Shown here: positions 32,457 through 38,150 of the stretch, piece by piece | Layout of the letters: every line of letters starts with the position of its first letter | How positions within the stretch are numbered: position 1 is the first letter of the stretch | NCBI GenBank assembly: GCA_963716985.1 | Contig: OY970323.1 | Location: 1,457,942 to 1,521,941, forward strand | Direction: 5' to 3' | From: an uncultured bacterium | GTDB lineage: Bacteria > Chlamydiota > Chlamydiia > Chlamydiales > SM23-39 | Length of the DNA stretch: 64,000 bases | The notes under the pieces: generated by a model | Databases searched by the model: none | The model's input: the letters and a program-made list of their open reading frames with translations, nothing else | Told to the model about the DNA's origin: nothing | Program-made: the position numbers and the translations under genes

Positions 32457-32582
32457 GAAGCGGCCGCCTCCTCTTCCCTCTAATGGATTTCTGCGCTGTC
32501 AATAAAGTGGGAGGTTCTCTTTTGCCGCTCCATAAATTCCCATTGGCTCTCATGGGAAGAGCGAAAAAGAAAAAGCGATCCT

Positions 32583-32635: not shown

Positions 32636-33442
32636 ATGAGCTTTTTTCAACTAATCGTTCCCTTTATAGAAATTGCGATTATCTCTATTGCCTTGAACTA
32701 TCTATTGTCTTTTTTTTGGCATACCAAGTCAATGGATCTCGTTTGGGGATTTTTTGCCTTCATCCTACTTTTTGCCCTCTCCGGATGGCTCCACTTGCCC
32801 GTTCTGCATAAGATCATGTTTTTAATTGCCAACACGGCAATGATTGCCGTGCTTATCATCTTTCAGCCCGAACTCCGCGTTGCCCTCTCTAAGCTTTCCT
32901 TGAAAGGCAAACGCTACAAAGAAATCACCGAGTTTGACAAATTTCTCGATAGCCTTGCCAACTCTACTTATCGTTTGGCTGAAAAAAAAACCGGAGCATT
33001 GATTGTTCTAGAAAATGAAGACTCCTTAGAAGAATATGCGCAAAAAGCAGTGATGCTTCATGCGGTTTTTTCTTCGGAATTATTAGAAACTATCTTTGCC
33101 TCCAACACTCCTCTCCATGACGGAGCTTTGATCATCCGAGAAAACATGGTTTTAGCTGCGGCTGTCATTCTGCCCCTGGCAGAAGATAGTTCACAGCTAA
33201 GCAAATCCATGGGCACACGCCATCGGGCAGCGCTGGGATTGAGCCATGCGACCGATGCTCTCGTGATCGTCATCTCCGAAGAAACGGGAAAGGTATCGAT
33301 CGCACGCGACGGAATTATAACTCGGGGTATAAAAATCGATCGATTTAAAGGCATTATTCGCAGCATTTTCAATCCACCGAATCGCGTACAAACAAAATTT
33401 CATTTGCGTGAATGGTTTCAACAGTCAACCGCCCCTCCCTAA
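32636..33442 (+). CDS. dacA: Diadenylate cyclase CdaA/DacA; last codons supplied by the inserted omegaRNA element
   Basis: Three TM helices; FQPELR, PLHDGA, GTRHRAALG, SEETG. Confidence 0.95.
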   Translation: MSFFQLIVPFIEIAIISIALNYLLSFFWHTKSMDLVWGFFAFILLFALSGWLHLPVLHKIMFLIANTAMIAVLIIFQPELRVALSKLSLKGKRYKEITEFDKFLDSLANSTYRLAEKKTGALIVLENEDSLEEYAQKAVMLHAVFSSELLETIFASNTPLHDGALIIRENMVLAAAVILPLAEDSSQLSKSMGTRHRAALGLSHATDALVIVISEETGKVSIARDGIITRGIKIDRFKGIIRSIFNPPNRVQTKFHLREWFQQSTAPP

Positions 33443-33705
33443 AGGGAGAGGTAGAATTAAGCCTGAAGTTGACCAGCTTTAGTCTTAAGGCAACTTGAGA
33501 CTACGTTAGGAGCGAATAGAATATATAGGCACCTTGGAATGCCGCCTCAGTTCCAAGCTCTGCGGTTAGCAGTTAAACCAAGCGTACAGGTTAAACCAGT
33601 GCTGTTAACATGGTAAACCGCTCCATAACTTTGGCGAGGGGAACGTTACCCGGGAAACCGGAGATTGCAGGTAACTGGTAGGGGGGAGCAATCCCCCCGC
33701 TTTTA
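33424..33705 (+). ncRNA. HEARO / IscB omegaRNA scaffold (3' end approximate; the guide would be the flanking ~33404-33423)
   Basis: Conserved blocks in order: GTCAAC..GTTGACCAG, ACTACGTT, GGCAC-TTGGAATGC...AGTTCCAAG-CTCTGCGG, TTAAAC, CAGTG, AAACC, TAACTTTGGCGAGG..AC.TTAC. Confidence 0.85.
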
Positions 33706-33776
33706 AGTTTAACAATAAAGGAGCAGCGCTTCCCCCCACCCCTAAAGGGATGGGTTTTTCGCGCTGTTAAAATAGG
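33424..33776 (+). mobile_element. Non-autonomous IscB-type IS200/605 element (omegaRNA only, no iscB ORF), 353 bp
   Basis: Starts GTCAACCGCCCCTCCCTAAAGGGAGAGG; second end hairpin CCCACCCCTAAAGGGATGGG; no TSD. Excision restores CAA-TGA/ATG overlap of cdaA and cdaR. Confidence 0.88.
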
Positions 33777-34991
33777 ATGAAAGATCTTCTCAAAAGAGTC
33801 TTTTTTGAACATTGGCAAAGGAAAACCATTTCTCTCTTCTTGGCTGTGATTACGTGGTTTCTCGTCCATCATTCTATGACATCGACCAAAACATTGACCG
33901 AGATCCAGGTGAAAGTCATCAATCTGCCCCCAAACAAAACAATTGAAGGGCTGAGCCAAAGTAATATCATGAACAATCGCATCTCCCTCACCTTGATGGG
34001 CAGCAAAAATGCGATCGATGAACTAACTGCCAAGGATCTGGAGGTCATTATTGACGCTTCGAATAAAGGAGAAGAATGGATTGCGTCCATCTCTAAGAAA
34101 AATCTCATTTGCTTCAATCCCGATATTGACATCATGCAGAGTATTCATCGAGTGGACCATGAAGATTTCTTCATCAAACTCTCGCCGCTCGCAACATCTA
34201 AGATCCCCGTCTATCTCACACCGCCAGAAGGAGAACCACCGCTGGGATATGAATTTTTGAATGTTTGGCCAAACGAGCTCTTTATCACCCTTAGCGGTCC
34301 GGAAAAAACCATCCAAGAACTAAAAAATCTAGGGATTTCTTTGGCCTTCAATTTGGATAATGTGTCCAGGCAAGAATTGAACGCTCTTCGCAAGGATAAT
34401 CCCCACGAAGTCATCAGCTATTCGGTCCCCGCTTCCTGGAAACTTATCGATATCCATTCCATTTCACCGACCCCCCTCCCAATCGACGATCCCAATAGCT
34501 CGCAACTTCGCATCAATTTTGTTCAAAAGGAGATGTTTCCCCTTGGCGTTCCTCTTCCGATCCATCTTTTTTGCGCCGCCACAACTCTTTCTTCTTCCGA
34601 TTCCCCCATAAATCTTAGCGAAAACAAAGGCGTGGTCGAAGAAAAAAATGGTGTCTTTTTCTACACCGCTCCACTTTTTGTCCGCGGCGTGAACCGTTCT
34701 CTTCTCGAGTTCATTAAAAATCGACTCGAACTTATTATTTTTCCCTCCTCCGGAACGTTTCGTTGGAGCATCGAACTGCAAGGCATCGAAGAGCTTGCGG
34801 AAGAGTATGCCGGGCAAGAAGAAAAAAAGCAGCTCCCTAACAATGCCTGTCCGGAAGAGTATTATATAGACCAATTTCAAAAATATTTGCGCCTGATCCG
34901 CTTCTACCAATCCGATGAGGAAGAATTACAACTGCGAATCGAATGCAAAGACAAAAAGATTCTCGTCACTCCTAAAAAAGCACATTCCTAA
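33777..34991 (+). CDS. CdaR/YbbR-like membrane-anchored protein
   Basis: N-terminal WQRKTISLFLAVITW anchor, YbbR-like beta repeats, position after cdaA. Confidence 0.75.
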   Translation: MKDLLKRVFFEHWQRKTISLFLAVITWFLVHHSMTSTKTLTEIQVKVINLPPNKTIEGLSQSNIMNNRISLTLMGSKNAIDELTAKDLEVIIDASNKGEEWIASISKKNLICFNPDIDIMQSIHRVDHEDFFIKLSPLATSKIPVYLTPPEGEPPLGYEFLNVWPNELFITLSGPEKTIQELKNLGISLAFNLDNVSRQELNALRKDNPHEVISYSVPASWKLIDIHSISPTPLPIDDPNSSQLRINFVQKEMFPLGVPLPIHLFCAATTLSSSDSPINLSENKGVVEEKNGVFFYTAPLFVRGVNRSLLEFIKNRLELIIFPSSGTFRWSIELQGIEELAEEYAGQEEKKQLPNNACPEEYYIDQFQKYLRLIRFYQSDEEELQLRIECKDKKILVTPKKAHS

Positions 34992-36134
34992 ATGGCCAAT
35001 CATATTGTTCTTTTAAAGAGCAACTTTCACAAAAAAGGCGGACTCGAAAAATATTCTTGGAGAACTGCCAAAGCCTTTGCGGCAAAAGGAATGATTGTCG
35101 ACATTCTCACCACAGGGAAGAAAGAAGAATTTCCTTCGGATGAGCAGATCTCCTTCCATGCCTTTCAAACATGCCGCTGGCCGGGGTTTCGGCGCATAGA
35201 ACAATATGATCGATTTTGCAAGAAATGGATTCATGACCACCCCTCCTCTCTGATCTTTGGCATGGACCGCAACCGCATGCAAACCCATCTGCGGGCCGGC
35301 AATGGAGTGCACATCTCCTATCTCCGCCATCGATACCAGTTTGAAGGTCCTTGGAAAAAGCTAAGCATCTCCTTAAATCCTTTGCATAGAACCATTTTAA
35401 AAATTGAAAAAGAGTCTTTTGAAAACCCGTGCCTACAAAAACTCATTACGAACTCTTCCATGGTGAAGGAAGAGATCTTACGCTATTATTCTATCGACGA
35501 AAAAAAAATCTTCGTCATTCATAACGGAGTGGAATGGCTTGAGAAAGAGAAGGATTTTCTTCAGTGGCCAGACAAAAAAAAACTCGTAGCCCAAAAGCTG
35601 CAACTCGACCCGGATGTCTTTCATTTTCTATTCATCGGCCACGGATATCTTCGAAAAGGATTAAAACCGCTCCTCCTCGCTCTTTCTCTACTGCCTCGAC
35701 GGGATTTTCATTTATCCATCATCGGGAAAGAAAAAAAAATAAAGGATTTCATTGCGCTTGCAAAAAAACTCCATCTGGAAAAAAACGTGAGTTTTTTTGG
35801 TCCGTTAGAAGAAATTCTGCCTTTTTATCAGCTCGCCGACTGTCTGATAATCCCTTCTTTTTATGATCCTTTTGCCAACGTCACCGTGGAAGCTCTTTCT
35901 ATGGGAATATTCGTCGTCTCCTCTAAAACCAACGGAGGCCATGAAATCCTGACTCCAGAAAATGGCATCGTTATCGACGACAATTTCGACCCATACTCCA
36001 TAAAAAAATCTCTTCTTTTAGCAATGGATCGTCCAAAAACGCAAAAGAGGGCTGCAGACATTCGCTTGTCAATCCAACACCTCGATTTTTCAAAACAGCT
36101 CGAACTTTTGATACAAACGACGCTAACTTCATGA
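34992..36134 (+). CDS. GT4 glycosyltransferase (WaaG/RfaG-like)
   Basis: GGLEKY, IHNGV, PSFYDPFANVTVEALSMG. Confidence 0.88.
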   Translation: MANHIVLLKSNFHKKGGLEKYSWRTAKAFAAKGMIVDILTTGKKEEFPSDEQISFHAFQTCRWPGFRRIEQYDRFCKKWIHDHPSSLIFGMDRNRMQTHLRAGNGVHISYLRHRYQFEGPWKKLSISLNPLHRTILKIEKESFENPCLQKLITNSSMVKEEILRYYSIDEKKIFVIHNGVEWLEKEKDFLQWPDKKKLVAQKLQLDPDVFHFLFIGHGYLRKGLKPLLLALSLLPRRDFHLSIIGKEKKIKDFIALAKKLHLEKNVSFFGPLEEILPFYQLADCLIIPSFYDPFANVTVEALSMGIFVVSSKTNGGHEILTPENGIVIDDNFDPYSIKKSLLLAMDRPKTQKRAADIRLSIQHLDFSKQLELLIQTTLTS

Positions 36135-37441
36135 ACCGAGACCTTTTTTTCTATTCTCTCACTCGCATTCTTACGTTCCCCATTCGATGGATGCCCTACT
36201 CCTTCATCCATCTTCTCGGCAGGTGGGTAGGAATGCTTGCCTTTTACTTTCTTAAGAGCTATCGGAAACGTGCGCTTAGCAATCTTGCTCTGGCCACCGA
36301 TCTTCATTTGAAAACAGAGGAGCTATTTTCTATTGCAAAAGGATCCTTTCAAAATCTGGCGATCAACGTTCTTGAATATCCCCGCTTGGCAAGAGAAAAA
36401 AAATTTTCTCGGATCGTTCAATGTGAAAATCCGCATATGGCCGACGATCTTTATCGAAAGGGGCAGGGCATCATTTTTTTCTGCGGACATCAATCTAATT
36501 GGGAAGTTCTTTTTTTAGACGGGACGACGCGAATGAAGGGAATTGCCATCGGAAAACCCATCAAAAACAAAAAGCTTTATCAATGGATCGTGGATATTCG
36601 CGAAAAGAACGGCGGAAGGATCATCGTTCCCCGCAATGCACTGCGCGAAGGGCTTCGCTCTCTCAGAAAGGGAATTTTTATGGGCATTGTCGGAGATCAG
36701 GGAATGCCCGACAGCGGATACTCTTTCCCTTTCTTGGGAAGAAGAGCCTGGACCTCTACCGCACCGGCGCTTCTTTCCTATAAAACAAACTCCCCTATTA
36801 TCGTTGCAACTACCCGCAGAACTAAGGAGGGCTATCGCATCAATTACAGCAACCCCATCTTTCCGGAGCTCTCGGTGCCTATGGAAGAAGAGATCATCCG
36901 TCTCATGAATCATTCCCTCTCTCTCTTGCAAGAAAGCATCAAAAAAAGCCCTGAAGAATGGCTCTGGCAACACAATCGCTGGAAACAGCAGACCCCCAAA
37001 ATCCTTTATAAAAAATTTCGCCATGATTGTATCGCAATGATCCTTCCTCCTCAAAAAGAGGATGTAGAAAAGATCTTGCCCCATCTAAAAACCCTGAAAA
37101 AAATCTATCCGCAAGATTTTATCTTCCTCATGATTCCGGAGTCGCTCAAAAACACTCCCTTGATCGAAGCAGATGAAACCTTTACCTATCGCGACATCGA
37201 AGAGACGCTGCGTTTTGACTATCGCTTCAAGATGGTTTTCAATTTCACCTCTTACAAAAAAGTGAAAAAGCATTATAAAAAGCTCAGTGCGTTTGAAGTG
37301 CTCTCTTTAGAAGATTTTCAAAGGCTCGCTCGCCCCTATTTAGGAGCAGAAAAACCCTTTGATCTTTCGGAGGTTTTTATCTATGCCCTATGCCGTCCGG
37401 CCGCGATCCCGATATTGAAGGAATCTCTTTATGCCCCATGA
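36131..37441 (+). CDS. Lipid A late acyltransferase (LpxL/HtrB family) with C-terminal extension
   Basis: GHQSNWE (H-x4-E), VGDQ, PEEWLWQHNRWK, then ~130 extra residues. Confidence 0.85.
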   Translation: MNRDLFFYSLTRILTFPIRWMPYSFIHLLGRWVGMLAFYFLKSYRKRALSNLALATDLHLKTEELFSIAKGSFQNLAINVLEYPRLAREKKFSRIVQCENPHMADDLYRKGQGIIFFCGHQSNWEVLFLDGTTRMKGIAIGKPIKNKKLYQWIVDIREKNGGRIIVPRNALREGLRSLRKGIFMGIVGDQGMPDSGYSFPFLGRRAWTSTAPALLSYKTNSPIIVATTRRTKEGYRINYSNPIFPELSVPMEEEIIRLMNHSLSLLQESIKKSPEEWLWQHNRWKQQTPKILYKKFRHDCIAMILPPQKEDVEKILPHLKTLKKIYPQDFIFLMIPESLKNTPLIEADETFTYRDIEETLRFDYRFKMVFNFTSYKKVKKHYKKLSAFEVLSLEDFQRLARPYLGAEKPFDLSEVFIYALCRPAAIPILKESLYAP

Positions 37442-38150
37442 TCGTTTTTTTTCCGAAGAGAGTCTCAGGGTCCACCAAACGATCACCCTATCCGGCAGCG
37501 AGCTGCACCATCTGCAGCATGTCATGAGAAAAAAAACAAACGACCTGGTTGAAATGATCAACGGAAGAGGAGAGCTTGCGAAAGCCAAGGTGCGCTCCAT
37601 TGCATCCAAAGAAGCCCTTTTAGACATACTCGATGTTGCAACTGAGCAAAAGCCGCCCCCATCTCTTTATCTGGCCCAAAGCTGGATCCACCCGACAAGG
37701 CTCGATTGGGTCTTGGAAAAGGGATGCGAGCTTGGGGTCACAGCGTTTTTCCTCCTCTCCACCGACAATTCCACAGCGCCTCATCTGAATGAATCCAAAC
37801 AAGAACGCATGAGAACTCTTCTCATCTCCGCACTCAAACAATGCGGACGGCTTGATCTGCCCCGAATTTCCATTCAAACAAACCTATCTTTTCTCTCTTC
37901 TCTGTCAGCCACCCTTCTCTTTGGAGATATTCGAGAAAATGCCCATCTTTTGAAGGATTACCTCTCCTCCCACCCCTTAGAAAGACCGCCCTGTCTCCTC
38001 ATCGGCCCCGAAAAGGGCTTTTCATCCAATGAGATCGCCTTATTAGAAGAAAAGATGCATGCAACCGGCGTCCGCCTTCACTCCAACATTCTTCGCAGTG
38101 AAACGGCTGCCCTTATGGGCCTTTCTCTACTCGCACACCAGCTCGCTTAA
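37431..38150 (+). CDS. rsmE: 16S rRNA m3U1498 methyltransferase
   Basis: HHLQHVMRK, EKGCELGV, KQCGR, IGPEKGFS, ILRSETAA. Confidence 0.93.
   Translation: MPHDRFFSEESLRVHQTITLSGSELHHLQHVMRKKTNDLVEMINGRGELAKAKVRSIASKEALLDILDVATEQKPPPSLYLAQSWIHPTRLDWVLEKGCELGVTAFFLLSTDNSTAPHLNESKQERMRTLLISALKQCGRLDLPRISIQTNLSFLSSLSATLLFGDIRENAHLLKDYLSSHPLERPPCLLIGPEKGFSSNEIALLEEKMHATGVRLHSNILRSETAALMGLSLLAHQLA

Follow-up and report, generated by a model that had tools for sequence, protein, structure and literature searches.

A probable protein-less IscB-type mini-element with a conserved omegaRNA at the cdaA–cdaR junction of a chlamydial genome

Between cdaA and cdaR in the genome of an uncultured bacterium of the Chlamydiales (lineage SM23-39) lies a 353-bp segment that we consider very probably to be a non-autonomous element of the ISC (IscB) branch of the IS200/IS605 family, that is, a protein-less, omegaRNA-carrying mini-element of the PATE-like kind. 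It occupies positions 33424 to 33776 of the 64,000-nt stretch analysed here (GenBank assembly GCA_963716985.1, contig OY970323.1, positions 1,457,942 to 1,521,941; hereafter the window). Its omegaRNA scaffold is complete, and it retains the subterminal hairpins of both ends together with the final ∼ 75 nt of the full-length elements. An earlier note on the DNA had proposed that an IscB omegaRNA element devoid of iscB lies at this place, and had suggested a search using the HEARO covariance model (RF02033; HEARO is the IscB omegaRNA). The search bore this out: the full model (positions 1–211) matched 33424–33649 on the + strand with 119.6 bits and an E-value of 3.9e-24, above the RF02033 gathering score of 83 bits. 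This was the sole HEARO match in the window, permissive matches with E ≤ 0.1 included. The segment was ORF-less, in that no + strand open reading frame (ORF) of at least 40 residues was found inside 33443–33776, and no iscB ORF (RRXRR plus HNH) was found directly 3′ of the omegaRNA. An adjacent iscB ORF, by which the HEARO family is also recognised, is missing from the window copy and present at the omegaRNAs of the related loci L052, L044, L017, L053 and L065; the family is accepted to include copies that lack it. The predicted fold of the 377-nt stretch at this place was better than that of 100 of 100 shuffled sequences (z = −3.5).

The ends of the segment were defined by comparison with relatives. 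Deletion of 33424–33776 from the window gives ...GAATGGTTTCAACA|ATGAAAGATCT, the same junction as in relatives, with zero duplicated bases; the insert is therefore exactly 353 bp long and lies immediately 5′ of ATGA. The uninterrupted cdaA–cdaR junction reads GAATGGTTCAAACAATGAAAGATCT in locus L004, whose CdaA is 90% identical to that of the window, and AAGCAATGAGAACC in L005 (CdaA 78% identical). In P0002 (86% identical) the coordinates of the two genes overlap by 4 nt. The empty loci L004 and L005 gave no HEARO match. Three other members of the 90% cluster of the window CdaA (90–92% identical) end in ...REWFKQ, without the STAPP tail of the window protein, and the C-termini of the P0122 and P0123 proteins agree with the exact empty-site junction. 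The nearest CdaA proteins carry the names Chlamydiota, Chlamydiales, Parachlamydiales or Simkaniaceae. The insertion itself was recovered, 100% identical over 353 nt, from two independent ENA assemblies, and a third contig (Logan run), which ends 85 nt into the element, is 100% identical up to there. Thus the boundaries given in the earlier note proved exact, and so did its prediction that excision restores an ATGA at which the cdaA stop overlaps the cdaR start; four close relatives have this overlap (...CA|ATGA) and no insert. Its naming of the flanking genes as cdaA and cdaR–GT4–lpxL–rsmE agreed with our ORF and Pfam scans. The coordinates are collected in the table.

In the interrupted allele, the cdaA frame enters the element for 19 nt and is closed by a TAA that the first hairpin carries in its loop (33440–33442), a new stop to which the earlier note had drawn attention. 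The start of cdaR, which formerly overlapped cdaA, now lies 335 nt 3′ of the cdaA stop, and the 4-nt overlap is gone. It might be asked whether the segment resembles HEARO by chance or is another structured RNA, such as a riboswitch or a cdaR leader. Its position upstream of cdaR suggests this, and nothing more; the full-model HEARO match, the absence of the segment from the relatives' sites and the existence of homologous copies with iscB refute it, and we give it practically no probability.

Two alike imperfect hairpins with TAAA loops, which form a 79% direct repeat of each other, lie at 33432–33451 (CCCCTCCC-TAAA-GGGAGAGG) and 33735–33754 (CCCACCCC-TAAA-GGGATGGG), the first 8 nt inside the left boundary (the omegaRNA end) and the second 22 nt inside the right one. 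Both inverted terminal repeats and a target-site duplication are absent. The two distances fit the geometry of IS608 if the omegaRNA end is the "right end" in the terms of the transposase TnpA and the ATGA side the "left end", and we infer this orientation. In the 3′-terminal module, an outer stem (CAGCGC/GCGCTG) pairs 33724–33729 with 33761–33766 and encloses the second hairpin. A profile search with this module gave an nhmmer E-value of 3.7e-12, and its helices 18 and 19 covary. A weak match to the right-end module was also seen at 32459–32505 (+), between an RNase T-like gene and cdaA (nhmmer E 0.084; ...CCTCCTCTTCCCTCTAATGGATTTCTGCGCTGTCAATAAA, with no ATGA after it); this may be a degraded solo end or a chance match.

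Table. Coordinates of the element, its parts, the flanking genes and identical sibling copies (window positions unless a locus is named)
Feature	Position	Strand	Evidence and remarks
Probable protein-less ISC/IscB-type mini-element, 353 bp, 5′-GTCAAC ... AAATAGG-3′	33424..33776	+	Empty sites in relatives; sibling minis of 344–361 bp with same layout
Candidate omegaRNA guide flank TTGCGTGAATGGTTTCAACA	33404..33423	+	Last 20 nt of original cdaA frame; directly 5′ of HEARO model position 1
OmegaRNA core (HEARO, RF02033)	33424..33649	+	119.6 bits; compensatory changes among 7 protein-less copies
Subterminal imperfect hairpin, omegaRNA end (RE in TnpA terms)	33432..33451	+	Loop TAA 33440–33442 is the present cdaA stop; helix 2 covaries
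Two small conserved hairpins 3′ of the Rfam model, extending the omegaRNA	33650..33677	+	Helices 14 and 16: 3/3 pairs each changed on both sides
Small hairpin CCGGGAAACCGG	33650–33661	+	Conserved among mini copies
Small hairpin CAG-GTAA-CTG	33668–33677	+	Conserved among mini copies
Intrinsic-terminator-like GC hairpin and T-run, GGGGGGAGCAATCCCCCC GCTTTT	33681..33704	+	Terminator scan; covariation; mini lineage only, not in full-length relatives
3′-terminal module: iscB C-terminal codon remnant, outer stem, subterminal hairpin, terminal AAAATAGG	33705..33776	+	Aligns with last ∼ 75 nt of L052, L044, L053, L017, L065
Target/TAM (target-adjacent motif) ATGA(A)	33777..33781	+	ATG opens cdaR; TGA closes cdaA in the empty allele; same flank at sibling copies
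cdaA, diadenylate cyclase	32636..33442	+	Pfam DAC 1.4e-41; lengthened by 5 element-encoded residues (Ser-Thr-Ala-Pro-Pro)
cdaR, YbbR-domain protein	33777..34991	+	Pfam YbbR; synteny in relatives
GT4 glycosyltransferase	34992–36134		Operon gene after cdaR
Lipid A acyltransferase	36131–37441		
RsmE	37431–38150		
Identical 344-bp protein-less copies, MAG (metagenome-assembled genome) JAZKAC01	L033 1835–2178; L080 2496–2839; L082 5363–5706		

Conservation of the RNA structure was analysed in an alignment of seven distinct protein-less copies, from which the structure was also predicted, and compared with 500 shuffles. The fraction of paired cells was 92.8%, as against 81.3% in the shuffles and 35–44% with slid partners, the latter contrast being inflated because the structure was derived from the same alignment. 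Forty-four of the 90 pairs had changed on both sides, as against 20.5 in the shuffles. Neither observed value was attained by any of the 500 shuffles. The compensatory changes among the protein-less copies are real, and retention of the fold in this way implies selection on the RNA. They fell in the subterminal hairpins at both ends, the two small hairpins 3′ of the Rfam model, a terminator-like hairpin and both stems of the 3′ module. The Rfam model ends at 33649; the conserved structure reaches ∼ 33704. The window copy keeps 80 of the 90 consensus pairs.

The terminator-like hairpin (33681–33698, followed by GCTTTT) corresponds to helix 17, in which four of seven pairs had changed on both sides, and a GC hairpin with a T-run of 4–8 T is conserved in six of the seven mini copies. 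With its GC stem-loop, T-run and conservation, 33681–33704 has what is required of a predicted intrinsic (Rho-independent) terminator. The earlier note had suggested that the last hairpin of the element and the TTTTT after it may act as an attenuator. This did not hold, as TTTTT occurs only in the window copy (the others have GGTTTCC) and the conserved structure is that at 33681–33704. Inside the omegaRNA, at 33495–33522 (+), the sequence TTGAGA-16 nt-TAGAAT is also promoter-like, with 10 of 12 positions matching. The −10 hexamer sits in a 5-nt insertion, a GAATA duplication, that is unique to the window copy, and the predicted promoter could feed transcription toward cdaR. Two other candidates were dropped: a promoter feeding cdaR from the last 20 nt (TGTTAAAAT, 33764–33772), which was not conserved in siblings and was missed by the promoter scan, and, within the 3′ module, a short ORF from the ATG at 33751 that might have served coupling, which a TAA terminates before the cdaR ATG.

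A degenerate left-end pattern retrieved 82 loci from the genome collection, none of them 100% identical to the window element; the exact left-end 25-mer had no match in metagenome contigs. Siblings were found in other Chlamydiota MAGs, where there are about a dozen, and also in a Coxiellaceae MAG and in a MAG labelled Verrucomicrobiae. Most of them are 69–76% identical to the window element, and all that were scanned gave full-model HEARO matches of 134–168 bits. They are of two kinds. A crude classification of the loci as full-length or mini mixed host genes with iscB, and we use it qualitatively only. Full-length elements of ∼ 1.6 kb (L052, L044, L017, L053 and L065) contain an ORF of 429–448 residues that begins right after the omegaRNA. 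The ORF of L053, the only one of these that was scanned against Pfam, has RRXRR (8.5e-68) and HNH domains, which identify it as IscB. Protein-less elements of 344–361 bp (L035, L032, L072, L051 and the identical L033, L080 and L082) consist of the same parts as the window copy; L025 is probably a further protein-less element.

Comparison of the two kinds shows how the mini-elements are built. In full-length copies, the last omegaRNA hairpin is followed directly by the ribosome-binding site and ATG of iscB, with no extra GC hairpin. In the minis, it is followed by the extra GC hairpin and T-run, then by a AACAATTTAAC-like junction, and then by the last ∼ 75 nt. Alignment of the 3′ ends places ...AACAATAAAGGAGCAGCGCTTCCCCCC... 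of the window with ...AAAGAGGAGCAGCGCTTCCTCCCC... of the full-length elements, where the DNA encodes the IscB C-terminus K-E-E-Q-R-F-L-P-P-L-K-E-G-V-S (...KEEQRFLPPLKEGVS) and the ORF passes through the end hairpin. The AAAGGAG at 33717–33723, read earlier as an orphan ribosome-binding site of iscB, lies within these conserved terminal ∼ 75 nt encoding the IscB C-terminus and is therefore not such a site. The "AGG leader" of the earlier note was considered as a Shine-Dalgarno sequence supplied by the element; the end bases abut the ATG and vary among copies (TAGG, TTGG, TATG, CAGG, ATCA), and this feature is not conserved.

These comparisons bear on the origin of the protein-less state. The earlier note implied that iscB was deleted in place, i.e. 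that a full-length element inserted at cdaA–cdaR and later lost iscB by internal deletion. The window copy, with both ends and the omegaRNA kept and the ORF missing, is what such a deletion would leave. However, minis with the same deletion architecture occur at unrelated sites in other genomes, three of them identical in one MAG, and the full-length relatives lack the extra hairpin; we regard loss in place as very improbable. The three identical minis of JAZKAC01 directly precede the start codons of three different genes (dxs, a TM2-domain gene and a parA-like gene), which shows that mini-elements move as mini-elements. The window element, too, would have moved as such and not by losing iscB at its present site.

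In a matrix of omegaRNA identities (12 copies), the protein-less copies did not form one clade. The omegaRNAs of the window and L025 cluster with full-length copies (77–83%), and those of L035, L032, L072 and L082 form their own group (78–91%). The mini-specific terminator and junction are nonetheless common to all minis, and this combination points to recombination between elements or to repeated capture of the 3′ module. Among the remaining siblings, L051 (972–1330), from the Coxiellaceae MAG, has the window-like mini architecture with an omegaRNA 73% identical overall and 78% identical over the central ∼ 160 nt. The L044 omegaRNA, from the MAG labelled Verrucomicrobiae, is 94% identical to that of L052, from a Parachlamydiales MAG. 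The likeness in these two cases suggests that elements passed between unrelated bacteria, which may have met in shared hosts, or else that contigs were mis-binned. Two partial sequences of the Simkaniaceae MAG JASJDV01 appear to be fragments of further copies: L065 6832–6878 (−), a second right-end module with a GTGA-like flank instead of ATGA, and L058 7548–7650 (+), where the omegaRNA gives way to unrelated sequence after ∼ 100 nt.

Next to its right end, the element family is almost always followed by the same motif. ATGA followed 12 of 13 chlamydial-family ends, usually as ATGAA, and, in the right-end profile, also most of the proteobacterial members, as the earlier note had expected of other copies. 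The flanks found were ATGAAAG, ATGAAAA, ATGAATA, ATGAAC, ATGAAG and ATGAG; one end was GTGA-like and one was unclear. To describe where these motifs lie, we compared 33 insertions having an ATGA flank with two nulls from the same loci, namely all ATGA sites and the non-disruptive ATGA sites; binomial p values refer to the latter. In 22 of the 33 insertions the ATG opens a co-oriented ORF of at least 100 codons (null 18% for all sites and 9.5% for non-disruptive sites, a value that counts first-start ORF starts and is conservative here; p 2e-15). The ATG is also the first start codon of its ORF in 15 of 33 (3.2% and 9.5%; p 9e-8). A true overlap, in which the TGA is in addition the stop of a co-oriented frame of at least ∼ 100 codons lying upstream, was found in nine of 33 (2.8% and 1.5%; p 1e-9). 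Caveats of these counts are that ORF calling was crude, that some pairings of left and right ends in proteobacteria are doubtful and that the number of distinct MAGs is limited.

Several of the starts are genuine N-termini as judged by Pfam alignment: DXP synthase (residues 3–277 against profile positions 2–274), the ParA-like ATPase (2–170 against 2–170), HypD (12–359 against 2–351), TM2 (5–52 against 2–50) and an Mrp-type NTPase (ParA, PF10609; 7–250 against 4–243). Elsewhere the element is often lodged between the Shine-Dalgarno sequence of a gene and its ATG; in L082, it parts the AAGGGAG of the gene from its start (TAAGGGAGCAAAAC|element|ATGAAT). The suggestion in the earlier note that ATGA steers copies into stop/start junctions thus stands in a broader form, as start codons are the more frequent landing place.

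The IscB ORFs of full-length copies also reach into this region. In L052, L044, L083, L053 and L010, the ORF continues through the end hairpin until the transposon ends. The first three use the TGA of the target ATGA as stop, and in L053 (TG|A) and L010 (TA|A) the stop straddles the junction; in all five a stop/start overlap with the downstream gene is recreated. Of 13 full-length copies in which the contig includes the end of the ORF, 5 have an IscB stop that overlaps the TAM; in four others the stop lies inside the hairpin loop.

These features agree with those of known systems. ISC transposons have 5′-GT(CA) termini, insert at N|ATGA without a target-site duplication and are mobilised in trans by Y1 transposases; their protein-less relatives were termed PATEs (Kapitonov, Makarova & Koonin 2016, PMC4810608). 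Like them, the window element has a 5′-GTCA terminus and imperfect hairpins near its ends, lacks both terminal inverted repeats and a target-site duplication, and is inserted immediately 5′ of ATGA. It differs from the ISC transposons in being without IscB and in coming from an environmental chlamydia; the ATGA families published so far are from cyanobacteria and proteobacteria. The IscB omegaRNA lies at a transposon end, with its guide outside, 5′ of the scaffold. For GstIscB (ISGst5) and for its TnpA alike, the motif recognised is TTCAT, or ATGAA as read along the omegaRNA strand. As transcription of the guide has to come from outside the element, IscB elements point the same way as the gene upstream of them. 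PATEs exist and RF02033 lacks downstream structural elements (all from Meers et al. 2023, bioRxiv 10.1101/2023.03.14.532601). The window element shares with PATEs and ISGst5 the lack of a protein, the kept ends, the omegaRNA at the end, the flank-derived guide, the TTCAT = ATGAA TAM and the co-orientation with the upstream gene. Unlike them, the mini lineage of the window element has the omegaRNA in full, and with it a terminator-like hairpin acquired by this lineage. As a HEARO RNA, the window copy is no different in kind. Weinberg et al. reportedly noted in 2009 that some HEARO copies have no ORF and that insertions tend to lie 5′ of ATGA or GTGA, and Altae-Tran et al. are said to have described, in 2021, stand-alone omegaRNA loci that act with IscB in trans. 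The window omegaRNA resembles the latter in being without an adjacent iscB; its use in trans would be a prediction, and no IscB was found in the sequence available.

In summary, all the testable features of ISC and IS200/IS605 elements are present: subterminal hairpins, no terminal inverted repeats, a site-specific N|ATGA target and no target-site duplication. The one feature lacking is an iscB alongside, and it is this lack that characterises the protein-less (PATE-like) state known from earlier work. The finding is accordingly less novel than the earlier note held it to be, since the N|ATGA target, the 5′-GT terminus and protein-less derivatives had been published. The window element is a further member of the known ISC/PATE-like kind, clean but ordinary, and we have not found it described in Chlamydiota.

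We propose that a Y1 TnpA acting in trans brought the element here through single-strand "peel-and-paste" transposition; this TnpA would recognise the hairpins and the target TCAT (ATGA on the + strand); precise excision by TnpA would restore CAACAATGA. Read-through from cdaA would yield an omegaRNA with the end of cdaA, positions 33404–33423, as its 5′ guide. The arrangement of a 5′-flank guide and ATGA, put forward in the earlier note, follows from the boundaries and fits the TTCAT (= ATGAA) of Meers et al. (2023), and the predicted target in the empty allele (guide end plus TAM) is ...GTGAATGGTTTCAACA-ATGAAA. IscB supplied in trans would cut this allele and so drive re-copying of the element. 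The location would be explained by start-codon and stop/start ATGA sites being both transcribed and non-disruptive. Retention requires transcription from outside (Meers et al. 2023) and a non-lethal site, which accounts for the landing bias if, as we infer, start-codon ATGAs are the main sites that offer both. Disruption would be small here: cdaA gains five residues and a new stop in a hairpin loop, and cdaR keeps its ATG. As a side effect, translational coupling between cdaA and cdaR is likely lost, and some transcription likely terminates at 33681–33704, which may affect the expression of cdaR and the genes downstream.

Some observations weigh against an element of this kind at work in the window. 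Apart from a decayed fragment, there is no iscB in the 64-kb window, and no tnpA was found in the element or noticed in the window. The element is present in one copy only within the 64 kb. Its HEARO score is the lowest of 14 copies (119.6 as against 134–168 bits), and it has lost most of the second hairpin. The fragment, an iscB-like ORF of ∼ 65 residues at 48037–48240 (+) (MQIPGVIDPGSRTTGIAIV...SGYFNIQ...), gave a tblastn E-value of 0.023 and a Pfam RuvC/RRXRR E-value of ∼ 0.003, below the cut-off. It joins the IscB RuvC-I motif to an IscB C-terminal piece (MTQTMQIPGVIDPGSRTTGIAIV...SGYFNIQMAFEVVQGVHFKDH), has no recognisable omegaRNA upstream and looks like an internally deleted, decayed iscB. 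The genes on either side of it (47255–47995 and 48551–49306; 246 and 251 residues) are paralogous; that at 47255–47995, the only one scanned, had no Pfam match.

The decayed iscB, the low HEARO score with the truncated second hairpin and the single copy in 64 kb would also be expected if the element, although built as described, were an inert fossil, immobile and guide-incompetent for want of IscB and TnpA and persisting because its site is near-neutral. We take this to be a real possibility, if not the favoured one. It is opposed by the intact state of the TAM, of the hairpins at both ends and of 80 of the 90 pairs in the consensus, and by the compensatory changes with which the protein-less group keeps its omegaRNA fold, which imply selection on the RNA.

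A different role would be that of a co-opted regulator, an attenuator or uncoupler that lowers cdaR–GT4–lpxL–rsmE relative to cdaA by means of the terminator-like hairpin and the lost coupling. The hairpin and T-run at 33681–33704 are conserved in the mini lineage, the cdaA stop lies 335 nt upstream of the cdaR ATG, and the promoter-like site at 33495–33522 uses the 5-nt insertion unique to the window copy. However, siblings bear the same terminator before unrelated genes (dxs, parA-like, TM2, and genes for an outer-membrane protein and a solute-binding protein), so that the terminator belongs to the element at large and is nothing special to the cdaA–cdaR operon, and the nearest relatives manage without the insert. 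We consider such co-option improbable.

A bolder proposal combines two claims: that ATGA targeting is an adaptive "safe-harbour" strategy beyond a quirk of TnpA, and that the protein-less lineage is a mobile operon attenuator that uncouples CdaA from CdaR. Taken jointly, these appear rather unlikely to us. If the safe-harbour part were true, host transcription would provide the guide RNA, and the flanking genes would be minimally disturbed, the upstream gene stopping in the hairpin loop. Several full-length IscB ORFs, in turn, end in or across the TGA of the TAM and recreate a coupled stop/start.

For the IscB family, the window element extends the ATGA-targeting ISC group to Chlamydiota. The additions are modest: a bias for start codons and stop/start overlaps, which we have not found stated in the ISC/IscB literature examined, a mini lineage with its own terminator, and IscB ORFs that run through the transposon end. 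The element also offers a clean natural example of OMEGA: its empty site is exact, its omegaRNA is intact, its guide and TAM are defined, and it has no gene for the nuclease. A TAM containing both ATG and TGA may pay off, as such sites are transcribed and yet harmless. For the host, the site itself is of interest. Barker et al. reportedly found in 2013 that Chlamydia trachomatis expresses cdaA and cdaR (dacA–ybbR) together and requires both of them to make c-di-AMP. As the insert splits this pair, strains with and without it constitute a natural test of that coupling.

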